Source: Parachlamydiales bacterium
GTDB taxonomy: Bacteria > Chlamydiota > Chlamydiia > Chlamydiales > JAEYWL01
Direction: 5' to 3'
Assembly: GCA_020054065.1 (NCBI GenBank)
Contig: JAGVLX010000021.1
Span: forward strand, 17,262 to 81,261
DNA length: 64,000 nucleotides
Positions 47,549 through 49,828 of this stretch are shown here, piece after piece (the first letter of the stretch is position 1; every line of letters begins with the position of its first letter). Below the pieces are notes generated by a model. It had not been told where the DNA came from. It did not search any database and was given only the letters and a program-made list of their open reading frames with translations. The position numbers and the translations under genes were made by a program.

Positions 47549-49828
47549 TTATTCATATAACTTATGGCGCACTTCGTCCTGGCTATCTCTAATTGCTCTG
47601 GATTGGAGGTCGTAATTACCCGTATCCTTAAGATCCGAAGTATATATTTGCTTAGAAATATCAGATTCGTTATCCAAATTCAAGTTGAATCCTCTTTGAA
47701 TGTCCCGAAGGTCATTGACTGCTTTAACAGCGACTAAGCTACCTGTTAAATTGACGTGCTCCTCGGTTTTGATTTCTTGACCTTCTACAGTAACAACTTG
47801 CATACTTACTCTAGCCATTTCTTTTGCAACCTGAAGATCTCCAGCTAATTTATCCATCTGCGGAATATGTGCGATTCCGGCAGCGTTTAAGCCTTTAGTT
47901 ACATCTTTCAGTTGCCGTGCCTTGGAGAAAAATTCATTTAAATCTCTTAAGGATTCCCGTTGAGAGGAACTCAATTTATTGATCGTCGTTCCCAAACGAT
48001 CGATGGTATTATCCCGAATTGCACTTAAGATATTGGCTGCAGAATCTAAATCGCCTTTTTCGATCAAATTATGTGCAACATCCACAAAAAAACCAAGGGT
48101 TCTAGCGCGTTCCTCAGGAGTTGCCCCTTCCAAGACTTTTTGGTAGATATATGTTTTTAGACGCTCGTTAAAATCGTTAAGGCTTGCAATGTTCGGTATT
48201 TCTTTTTCGTCCTTAACATTATTTGCCATGGCGGTTAATTCTGCCGCCGTAATACTGCTGAATAAACTGGCTTTAGTTTTAAAAATATCCGATGCTATGA
48301 CTAGAACAGCAGCTTTCTTTTTACCTGAGGAGATTTTTCCGGTTCTAACGCGATCAAAAAGTTGATCCGAATTCAGACCTCCGATTTTTGGCATGTTAGG
48401 TTTCGATGCAGCCTGGGCGCCTGCTAATAGTAAATTTTCAGCTCTTGGAGCAACCGCAGGCTCATTTTGGACTGTGGCAATAAGGGTTTTAAACGCGGCT
48501 GAACTTAAACTGTTACTGTTCATAGGATGGCTTGCCCACATTTCCACAAAATCTAAGACTCGGTTTTGCTGCTCGGGGTTTAGGGTTGGCAACTTCTCTC
48601 TGACTAAATTAAGCATCTGATCAATCCTTCTTGAATTGAACATCACTTGACTTCCAGTGATAAAGAGTTCGATTAAATTAAATTTCTGCTCTCCCTTTTG
48701 AAGCACCACATTCCCATTTGCAATCCGATCAATGATCGCGTTCATGGATAAGGTGACCATATCCAAACGATCGAGTTTTTCTTGGGTATAGATATCGCTT
48801 GCAATGGCATTTCCCTTATAGGCAATGGTGTTATCTAATTCTTTATTCGTTTTTGTTGCCGTAAGGATTAATGTAATATCTTGTTGTTCTTTTTCAGTTG
48901 GCAGGAGTGATTTTCCTTCAGCCGCTGCCGCTTTTCCTTTTTCAACAGGCGCTCCAAATTCCCCTTTTTTGCCCTTTTGGATCGCTGCGTTCATTTCCGC
49001 AGCAGATTTCACTCCATATCTTGGCGGGGGCTCTTCAAACCGTTTAGGACCATCAGGCATTTTCCCTTTCTCTTTTGCAATAGGACGAAGCTCTAACCGT
49101 ACTTCTTGAACTTCTTCTTTGTGTTCTGCGCGTTGTGCTCCTTGACGCTCAATCGGTTCCCTGGGTTGGTTTGCTTCATTGCGATAGCGGCTAGATACCG
49201 CTTCAAAATCAAACCCGCTATCTTGACGTTCTAATTTTGGCCTTGCGTCACCTGGATTGGCTTCGCGAATTCTTTCTCTTGCCACATTGCGTTCTTGCGC
49301 TACACGTTTGCCCTGGGTTGCAAGACGGGATAAGGCCTTTCCATCACGTTTAATCGCATCGATCTCTTCCTTAGTCTTCCCAGCATCCTGCATCTCTTTC
49401 ACATCGCCTAACATTTTTTCAAGTTTGGCATCATCCTCAGGACTCATTCGGGCATCTGGAGGGAGTTCGCCATTAGGCCCTAACTTGGTAAGTTCGACCA
49501 CATTTCGTTTAGCGACGTTTTCTTTATATTCCGGGTGATGTTTGACATCTTGCTCAGCCGCCTTTCCGGTAACTGGCTTATCGACTCGCAGAACCACTCC
49601 TCCTTCGGGATAGTATTTACCGCGCAAAGCTTGATCAAGCGCTCTTGTTGCCGTTTTATGCGTCCTATCCTTCACTTCTTGACGTTTCTCATGCATCGCT
49701 TTGCGTGCTTCCGGAGTATGAGTGGATTTAATGTCTGAGGCATCGGCTTTTTTTTCTGCTGCTTTTTCTTCCACAACAGGGAGTGTATAAGCCTTTGCTG
49801 TTTCTTGAGATTTGGCTGCGCCTTCCAT
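47549..49828 (-). CDS. Eukaryote-like RasGEF (REM-like + CDC25-homology domain) protein with disordered K/E-rich N-terminus (759 aa)
   Basis: IPNIASLNDFNERLKTYIYQKVLEGATPEERARTLGFFVDVAHNLIEKGDLDSAANILSAIRDNTIDRL aligns by eye with SOS1 [69 protein letters not shown]. The downstream IAHIPQMDKLAGDL parallels the PCVPFFGIYLTNI block. RVLDFVEMWASHP parallels REM RVLNVCRHWVEHH. Confidence 0.7.
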   Translation of the reverse strand: MEGAAKSQETAKAYTLPVVEEKAAEKKADASDIKSTHTPEARKAMHEKRQEVKDRTHKTATRALDQALRGKYYPEGGVVLRVDKPVTGKAAEQDVKHHPEYKENVAKRNVVELTKLGPNGELPPDARMSPEDDAKLEKMLGDVKEMQDAGKTKEEIDAIKRDGKALSRLATQGKRVAQERNVARERIREANPGDARPKLERQDSGFDFEAVSSRYRNEANQPREPIERQGAQRAEHKEEVQEVRLELRPIAKEKGKMPDGPKRFEEPPPRYGVKSAAEMNAAIQKGKKGEFGAPVEKGKAAAAEGKSLLPTEKEQQDITLILTATKTNKELDNTIAYKGNAIASDIYTQEKLDRLDMVTLSMNAIIDRIANGNVVLQKGEQKFNLIELFITGSQVMFNSRRIDQMLNLVREKLPTLNPEQQNRVLDFVEMWASHPMNSNSLSSAAFKTLIATVQNEPAVAPRAENLLLAGAQAASKPNMPKIGGLNSDQLFDRVRTGKISSGKKKAAVLVIASDIFKTKASLFSSITAAELTAMANNVKDEKEIPNIASLNDFNERLKTYIYQKVLEGATPEERARTLGFFVDVAHNLIEKGDLDSAANILSAIRDNTIDRLGTTINKLSSSQRESLRDLNEFFSKARQLKDVTKGLNAAGIAHIPQMDKLAGDLQVAKEMARVSMQVVTVEGQEIKTEEHVNLTGSLVAVKAVNDLRDIQRGFNLNLDNESDISKQIYTSDLKDTGNYDLQSRAIRDSQDEVRHKLYE

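Follow-up and report, generated by a model that had tools for sequence, protein, structure and literature searches.

A divergent RasGEF-domain protein encoded beside type III secretion genes in an environmental chlamydia: a candidate mimic of host Ras-family exchange factors

Introduction

Bacterial mimics of the exchange factors that act on Arf, Rab and Rho GTPases, such as RalF, DrrA and SopE, are textbook cases. Does a chlamydia likewise encode a protein that imitates the exchange factors of Ras-family GTPases? This question is raised by one gene in a 64,000-nucleotide stretch of a Parachlamydiales bacterium (assembly GCA_020054065.1, contig JAGVLX010000021.1, positions 17,262 to 81,261), hereafter the window. 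An earlier note, made from the sequence alone, had read this gene as encoding a REM-like region followed by a CDC25-homology (RasGEF) domain, the catalytic domain of guanine nucleotide exchange factors (GEFs) such as SOS1, and had proposed that the product is secreted and acts on a host small GTPase. The open reading frame (ORF) is present exactly where the note had placed it:

47549..49828, minus strand: complete gene for a 759-aa RasGEF-domain protein (ORF list; ATG start; stop codon at 47549-47551)

An identical 759-aa product, encoded on a 107.6-kb contig, is found in public collections under the label "hypothetical protein", because NCBIfam holds no model that matches it. We show here that the homology to RasGEF domains is genuine and that the gene belongs to a chlamydial locus. 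We rate the chance that its product is a secreted, catalytically active mimic of a host Ras-family exchange factor as about even, a judgement in which catalysis is deduced from homology.

Results

The C-terminal part is homologous to CDC25 domains

47684..48298, minus strand: CDC25-homology (RasGEF) catalytic-type domain, aa 511-715 (Pfam PF00617, family profile against PDB, AlphaFold2 and Foldseek)

The Pfam RasGEF model (PF00617) matches aa 511-670 over profile positions 2-164 of 181 (E=1.9e-18), and its score of 67.4 bits is well above the curated gathering cut-off of 23.1 bits, in agreement with the CDC25 homology that the earlier note had aligned by eye. Already as a single sequence, aa 511-646 retrieve RalGPS1 (2.3e-5), yeast Cdc25 (1.4e-3) and SOS1 (0.075) from the PDB. 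An exhaustive HMMER search with aa 330-759 against 1.84 billion representatives returned 94 matches at E<=1e-3, with only the protein itself and one artefact below 1e-10; the best genuine relatives are 25-30% identical. The artefact, P0009 (4303 aa, E=1.3e-17), was rejected as a relative, being a 2.3-bit chance match multiplied across 22 identical repeats. A word-index search for homologs of the full-length protein recovered nothing else, and a scan of genome contigs with it found no relative.

We assembled nine proteins, including the window protein, into an alignment (A1) that covers the CDC25 domain and the region upstream of it. Against the sequences of the PDB, the A1 profile matches Cdc25 (5e-34), RasGRF1 (2.5e-32), RalGPS1 (5e-30) and SOS1 (3e-21), as well as RasGRP2 and RasGRP1. 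AlphaFold2, run on aa 380-759 with A1, gave an all-helical model with a mean predicted local distance difference test (pLDDT) of 70 and a predicted TM-score (pTM) of 0.59. In a Foldseek search of the PDB with this model, all of the 50 best-ranked matches are REM-Cdc25 exchange factors, including SOS1 (E=2e-6), with TM-scores of 0.67-0.70 to the Cdc25 domain of RalGPS1. The homology of this ORF to RasGEF domains is confirmed far beyond chance, and the model predicts a CDC25 fold. Neither of the two outcomes that the earlier note had named as fatal to its proposal, i.e. no significant RasGEF match or a model lacking the CDC25 fold, occurred.

A REM-like region precedes the CDC25 domain

48329..48751, minus strand: helical REM-like region, aa ~360-500 (AlphaFold2 helices, A1 profile to SOS1, F427/W431)
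48524-48562, minus strand: motif RVLDFVEMWASHP, aa 423-435, within the REM-like region

In SOS1, RasGRF1, yeast Cdc25, RalGPS1 and RasGRP, the CDC25 domain belongs to a REM-CDC25 arrangement. The window protein shares with these eukaryotic GEFs the CDC25 domain, the modelled fold and a modelled helical hairpin, and it has a helical domain with an xLLxFxxxW motif directly upstream, at the place of the REM domain. Two residues of this motif, F427 and W431 of RVLDFVEMWASHP, account for two of the only four columns of A1 that are invariant across the window protein's eight distant relatives. The A1 profile also aligns to SOS1 in one stretch (profile positions 5-361 on chain positions 60-453) that comprises part of the REM domain together with Cdc25.

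The tests restricted to this region were less conclusive. The RasGEF_N model (PF00618) does not match the window protein, either at full length at E<=1 or with aa 326-510 at E<=10, and among nine family members it gives weak matches in two, the best at E=0.016. When aa 326-510 were aligned with their counterparts in the relatives (alignment A2), the resulting REM-only profile reached the REM region of SOS1 in the PDB at a sub-threshold E of 0.36. When hhalign was used to compare the region with the genuine RasGEF_N segments of two hits, it fell into the right register, at probabilities of 17% (E=0.0014) and 4% (E=0.01). A separate AlphaFold2 model of the region shows confident helices (pLDDT 75-94 for aa ~365-475), for which Foldseek finds nothing below 0.1 in the PDB, SOS1 being the best by TM-score (0.40-0.42 at E=0.35-0.7). 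Since the REM-only tests are all sub-threshold, we call this region REM-like rather than a REM domain. These signals are mutually consistent and suggestive of a resemblance between aa ~360-500 and the REM domain of SOS1. The motif singled out by the earlier note thus lies where it was described and contains invariant residues, but no significant RasGEF_N match accompanies it.

The helical hairpin has a non-canonical base

47684..47866, minus strand: helical hairpin, aa 655-715, with the non-canonical base IPQMDKLAGDLQVAKE (AlphaFold2 secondary structure, A1, conserved-column test)

The CDC25 domains of 93 retrieved proteins were placed on the A1 profile, conservation was judged in the 84 that are not members of the family, and the hairpin was compared with the consensus [IV]P[YF][LF]G..L.DL.F...G.P. 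Conserved residues are kept at A512, F523, I526, E530, P545, N546, I565-L566, R574, F581, V584, A585, I600, R611, L612, T615, P656, D664, L665 and N693. In addition, E670, as aligned in A1, presumably corresponds to the second acidic residue of helix H, SOS1 E942. The hairpin itself is modelled as a helix (658-672), a beta-hairpin insert (678-687) and a second helix (694-715).

Several observations, together with the missing RasGEF_N match, weigh against an active exchange factor. Conserved W, N (87%) and R (86%) are replaced by N536, E555 and T644, and within the hairpin Y/F, G (83%), L, F and K are replaced by Q657, D659, A662, V667 and G696, respectively. Of these, Q657 occupies what we take to be the position of SOS1 F929, where mutation abolishes exchange, and D659 presumably that of SOS1 G931. 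According to A1 and the AlphaFold2 model, helix H is not followed by the usual GNP turn, and the tip of the helical hairpin carries an inserted beta-hairpin; this part of the protein is modelled with only moderate confidence (pLDDT 61-72). The eight relatives in A1 also vary at several of the replaced positions, so that the changes at the hairpin base could reflect either altered specificity or loss of activity. The case for catalysis by the window protein is weakened by the hairpin substitutions. The earlier note had proposed structural modelling to check the helical hairpin and the catalytic residues; the two long modelled helices and P656, D664, L665 and E670 agree with the consensus, whereas Q657, D659, A662, V667 and the lost turn do not.

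These substitutions bear on the idea that the protein is a secreted pseudo-GEF, in which the fold has been kept, exchange has been lost, and the domain sequesters a host GTPase or docks on another host protein. There is a model for such a function, as the CDC25-like domains of the NSP proteins BCAR3 and SHEP1 bind Cas proteins. The near-invariant residues replaced at Q657, D659, A662, V667, T644, E555 and N536, the lost GNP turn and the inserted beta-hairpin would all fit a pseudo-GEF, and the A1 profile weakly matches the non-catalytic SH2D3C (1.6e-4) and BCAR3 (4e-3). However, the match to these NSP proteins spans only about 75 positions and catalytic GEFs score far better (5e-34 against 1e-4), the hairpin is still predicted as two long helices, D664, L665 and E670 of helix H are kept, and the variation among relatives at the same positions may have to do with specificity and not with lost function. 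The NSP proteins, with degenerate catalytic features in their CDC25-like domains, would be possible functional analogues if the window protein were inactive, although the latter has no SH2 domain. On balance, we consider a pseudo-GEF rather unlikely, if a serious competitor of the active exchange factor.

The departures from eukaryotic REM-CDC25 GEFs extend beyond these replaced near-invariant residues and the inserted beta-hairpin. The window protein is no more than about 20-30% identical to these GEFs, lacks a RasGEF_N match and is the product of a bacterial gene; it carries none of the PH, DH, RA, C1, EF-hand or cNMP regulatory domains of the eukaryotic proteins, but a probably disordered N-terminus of 330 aa instead.

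The gene is retained at the same site in a second lineage

One relative, P0041, is an 820-aa RasGEF-domain protein (E=2e-5 in the HMMER search) encoded on contig ERZ12298641 scaffold_3382_c2 (locus L088, 23.9 kb), a locus that was reached by a gene-context look-up of P0041 and not by the scans of sctU loci described below. The gene order there is copN-sctV-sctU, ychF, rlmL, an LRR protein, a cytidine deaminase, the RasGEF gene, a transposase fragment and ribF-truB-rbfA-infB-nusA-rpsA. The proteins encoded at this locus show the following identities to those of the window: SctV 89%, SctU 74%, YchF 74%, TruB 69%, RlmL 64%, RibF 47%, the BTB-LRR protein 47%, and the RasGEF protein 24% (over window aa 320-748). 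P0041 thus occupies the same slot and has the same layout as the window protein, with a long non-conserved N-terminus, a REM-like region and a C-terminal CDC25 domain. The N-terminal regions of the two proteins are not alignable. Unlike the window protein, P0041 keeps IPYI and GNP and lacks the DL of helix H. Its locus also differs in the cytidine deaminase gene and the IS4-like transposase fragment that flank the RasGEF gene, and in the absence of orf228, the small ORF next to the gene in the window (see below). The RasGEF gene is retained at the same site in two lineages and diverges much faster than its neighbours, which is typical of host-interaction genes.

Two further features of the L088 locus were noted. 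The 248-aa fragment after the RasGEF gene (12741-13487) carries the C-terminal signature of IS4-type transposases, YYSLRWTIEIYHKILK, and a 245-aa Asn-rich protein with NANSNY repeats is encoded between ychF and rlmL (5750-6487).

A second assembly contains a strain variant of the window protein, likewise of 759 aa, with 26 substitutions and no frameshift. Of these, aa 1-330 hold 17, aa 331-510 hold 6 and aa 511-759 hold 3 (Fisher p=0.01 for the N-terminus compared with the CDC25 part), and this concentration in the N-terminus shows that the CDC25 part is under more constraint. In the same pair of strains, the BTB-LRR neighbour differs at 5 of 497 residues. This pattern fits a functional, constrained C-terminal module joined to a fast-evolving N-terminus.

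These data also address the possibility that the gene is mis-assembled host DNA, or a decaying transferred gene without function. The domain is typically eukaryotic, and the GC content at third codon positions (GC3) of the RasGEF gene (0.362) and of orf228 (0.380) is lower than that of the flanking genes (0.44-0.57), as might be expected of foreign DNA. On the other hand, the ORF is intact and intron-free over 759 aa, lies behind a bacterial promoter-like site and a Shine-Dalgarno sequence, and is surrounded by genes whose order is conserved in chlamydiae; the second assembly carries it with its 26 substitutions and an unbroken frame, a different chlamydial lineage has a positional ortholog, and the substitutions spare the CDC25 domain. 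We regard this explanation as largely refuted. The expression signals referred to are:

49863..49892, minus strand: sigma-70-like promoter TTTATA-18 nt-TATAAT, 10/12 (consensus scan and reading of the sequence; a consensus match only)
49832..49837, minus strand: Shine-Dalgarno sequence AGGTGG, 3 nt ahead of the ATG at 49828 (read from the sequence)

The promoter-like site lies within the AT-rich 113-bp gap that separates the BTB-LRR gene from the RasGEF gene. Tandem repeats were looked for within the RasGEF gene and none were found.

Other members of the family also occur on bacterial contigs. P0097 adjoins a run of genes for L31, RF-1, PrmC, Ffh, S16, TrmD, L19, RNase HII, Gmk and MetRS, which we take to be a chlamydial order; P0019 adjoins OTU, kinase and PP2C proteins; and P0017 lies on a 1.25-Mb contig. 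A further relative, P0012, is deposited as "RasGEF domain-containing protein [Thermoproteota archaeon]" (MFC1752431.1) and represents either a mis-binned contig or a RasGEF domain in an archaeal metagenome-assembled genome (MAG). Four others (P0048, P0058, P0073 and P0091) are very large Cys-poor proteins of 1499-5953 aa with two or three CDC25-like domains each.

The locus belongs to an environmental chlamydia and adjoins type III secretion genes

54289..59249, plus strand: sctU, sctV, sctW/copN and a CesT-family chaperone gene (NCBIfam SctU 3.8e-156, SctV 5.6e-268, SctW 6.4e-24; Pfam CesT 9e-7)
49942..51435, minus strand: BTB + BACK-like + LRR protein, 497 aa, directly upstream of the RasGEF gene (Pfam BTB and LRR matches)
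46823..47509, minus strand: orf228, a 228-aa orphan, 39 bp downstream of the RasGEF gene (ORF list)

The genes around the RasGEF gene are arranged as rpsA, nusA, infB, rbfA, truB and ribF on the plus strand, then orf228, the RasGEF gene, the 497-aa BTB+LRR gene, an RlmL-like methyltransferase gene and ychF on the minus strand, and then, again on the plus strand, sctU, sctV, sctW/copN, the CesT-family chaperone gene and malQ. We take this to be the order of Chlamydia trachomatis CT087-CT098, expanded by additional genes that separate ribF from ychF. The type III secretion system (T3SS) genes and the chaperone gene lie 4.5-9.5 kb from the RasGEF gene. With SctU as the query, 80 genome loci were retrieved, all of them in chlamydial-type MAGs, most of which are so titled (Parachlamydiaceae, Waddliaceae and others), with a best identity of 64%. 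The genome is therefore that of an environmental chlamydia that has no near representative, and it carries T3SS genes. No RasGEF gene was found in these 80 genome loci or in 77 chlamydial sctU loci from metagenomes (tblastn at 1e-5; A1 HMM at E<=1).

The BTB-LRR neighbour has homologs, at 25-31% identity, that fill the same slot between ribF and ychF in about 14 related chlamydial loci. Its domain content is that of an effector-type protein, a eukaryotic-like substrate adaptor for ubiquitin ligases. The arrangement of an N-terminal BTB domain and C-terminal LRRs is that of the Protochlamydia PEX1 expansion family (PMC4209131), and chlamydial BTB and F-box proteins were type III secreted in a heterologous assay (PMC4209131).

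The orphan orf228, possibly co-transcribed with the RasGEF gene, has no match in Pfam, NCBIfam or the PDB and no counterpart in the related chlamydial loci compared or in L088; in the second assembly the ORF has been annotated with an internal Met as its start, which gives a 164-aa product. We considered orf228 as a chaperone and rejected this assignment, because besides lacking those database matches it does not resemble the window's own CesT-family chaperone.

The junction between ribF and ychF (window 46780-54289; loci L006-L085), which adjoins the T3SS genes, is a hot spot of rearrangement and insertion. Distant chlamydial loci have truB-ribF-ychF-sctU as an uninterrupted run on a single strand; in the nearer loci, from the wider clade of the window, ychF and rlmL have the opposite orientation, with effector-type genes, often a BTB-LRR homolog, in between. 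An intergenic 9-bp tandem repeat, CAGGACACA x 3.7, is found just upstream of the BTB-LRR gene (51463-51495).

Elsewhere in the window, four large ORFs, at 25261-32268 (plus strand, 2335 aa), 33675-35636 (minus, 653 aa), 37441-38865 (minus, 474 aa) and 17107-18741 (minus, 544 aa), have no Pfam match at E<=1e-4 and no NCBIfam match at E<=0.01 except for TIGR04526, which the 2335-aa ORF matches with 15.6 bits (E=0.0056), far under the 150 bits required for that family. These four ORFs may encode chlamydial proteins restricted to particular lineages. The 653-aa ORF lies 3 bp after a 260-aa aspartate kinase homolog (35640-36422, minus strand) that covers only the N-terminal ~245 positions of profiles of ~400 aa or longer, i.e. 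the kinase domain without the regulatory ACT part. Finally, GC3 is 0.30-0.41 in the first 10,000 nucleotides of the window against 0.42-0.64 in most of the remainder, the RasGEF gene and orf228 excepted, with a compositional shift near 10-12 kb.

The N-terminal region may direct secretion

48839..49828, minus strand: aa 1-330, K/E/A/R-rich, probably disordered (composition, hydropathy, charge-hydropathy plot)

The N-terminal 330 residues contain 12% K, 13% E, 12% A and 8% R, with 38% charged residues and a grand average of hydropathy (GRAVY) of -1.13, and they fall on the disordered side of the charge-hydropathy boundary, which agrees with the probable disorder proposed from their K/E/A-rich composition in the earlier note. 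The highest Kyte-Doolittle mean over 19 residues is 1.24 across the protein, a crude test that indicates no hydrophobic segment; by this measure, neither a signal peptide nor a transmembrane segment was found in the 759 aa. A secretion signal is presumed to lie in aa 1-330.

Precedents among chlamydiae and Legionella

Two bacterial proteins annotated with RasGEF domains provide precedents. In Protochlamydia amoebophila, pc1363 (PC_RS06545) has a Pfam RasGEF domain, is positive in EffectiveT3, is present in the proteome of elementary bodies and belongs to the expression class "early I" (PMC5451489 Data Set S1). Its log2 RPKM (reads per kilobase per million) is ~9 at 2 hours post infection and in extracellular bacteria, and ~3.5-4 at 48 and 96 hours (PMC5451489 Data Set S1). 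The window protein and pc1363, compared here by annotation, share a chlamydial origin and a Pfam RasGEF domain, and pc1363 behaves as one would expect of the window protein. It is known as a row of a supplementary table, and no RasGEF gene occurs at the position of the window gene in the 80 Parachlamydiaceae- or Waddliaceae-type sctU loci.

In Legionella pneumophila, LegG2 (Lpg0276) is described under "Ras guanine nucleotide exchange" as a Dot/Icm substrate (PMC2824747) and is listed among Dot/Icm substrates and eukaryotic-like proteins (PMC2824747, PMC8442362, PMC2475511); a Legionella family with PF00617 is also counted among pathogen-associated domains (PMC8442362). LegG2 resembles the window protein, on the basis of annotation only, in being a bacterial RasGEF-domain protein of an amoeba-associated intracellular pathogen, but it is a substrate of a type IVB rather than a type III system and comes from a different phylum. 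In the searchable literature we found no demonstration of exchange activity for LegG2, and in the open-access texts no characterized bacterial GEF of the CDC25 type. As the annotations of LegG2 and pc1363 show, RasGEF domains were already on record in bacteria, chlamydiae included. The window protein is a new and unusually divergent bacterial RasGEF-domain protein, but not an unprecedented one.

The T3SS genes in the window, the BTB-LRR neighbour from a family competent for type III secretion, the lack of recognizable export signals and the precedent of pc1363 lead us to favour secretion of the window protein. An alternative is that the protein stays inside the chlamydial cell and regulates a bacterial GTPase of the Ras superfamily. 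The earlier note had argued that bacteria have no Ras, which is too strong a statement, since some bacteria do encode Ras-superfamily GTPases, such as the Rab-like proteins of Legionella longbeachae (PMC2824747), a point in favour of an intrabacterial role. A motif scan of the 64-kb window, however, revealed no ORF for a small Ras-like GTPase, the only P-loop matches being IF-2, YchF, ABC-type ATPases and an AAA protein. Moreover, the gene adjoins an effector-type BTB-LRR gene and has a much higher rate of divergence than the housekeeping genes around it, and the RasGEF-domain protein of Protochlamydia behaves like a pre-packed early effector. We consider an intrabacterial role highly improbable.

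Discussion

We propose that this environmental chlamydia uses the window protein as a eukaryotic-like effector, which the T3SS most likely delivers into a protist host, such as an amoeba. In this proposal, secretion would depend on a signal within the charged, probably disordered N-terminus of ~330 aa, which might also contribute to targeting. The REM-like region and the CDC25 domain (aa ~360-715) would work in the manner of SOS, RasGRF and Cdc25 and engage a host GTPase of the Ras family (Ras, Rap, Ral or similar) in its GDP-loaded state. The hairpin (aa 655-715) would then be pushed between the switch regions, expelling the nucleotide and allowing GTP to load, with the outcome that Ras/Rap signalling of the host would be switched on at the inclusion or at the site of entry.

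A more specific version of this proposal, to which we give a low probability, takes the divergence of the hairpin at face value. The protein would be an active GEF whose hairpin has been re-engineered, with a polar residue at the position of SOS1 F929, Asp substituted for Gly at the hinge and a tip extended by a beta-hairpin. Such a protein would be specific for a Ras/Rap-type GTPase of amoebae that controls macropinocytosis or phagosome maturation, and would represent a rapidly evolving, vertically retained lineage of chlamydial effectors beside the T3SS genes. If this were true, it would be the first biochemically defined bacterial GEF of the CDC25 type, with a recognition mode of its own.

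No new principle is involved here, and a demonstration of activity would be needed for more than a modest practical gain. What the present analysis adds is a locus beside T3SS genes, a positional ortholog and evidence of constraint on the CDC25 domain. In amoebae, Ras and Rap control macropinocytosis, phagocytosis and motility, the very processes that an intracellular chlamydia must subvert. The position next to the T3SS genes, the ortholog at 24% identity and the strain variant make this protein a tractable case in which to ask whether bacterial RasGEF-domain proteins are real GEFs, which GTPases they target and how fast an effector domain diverges.

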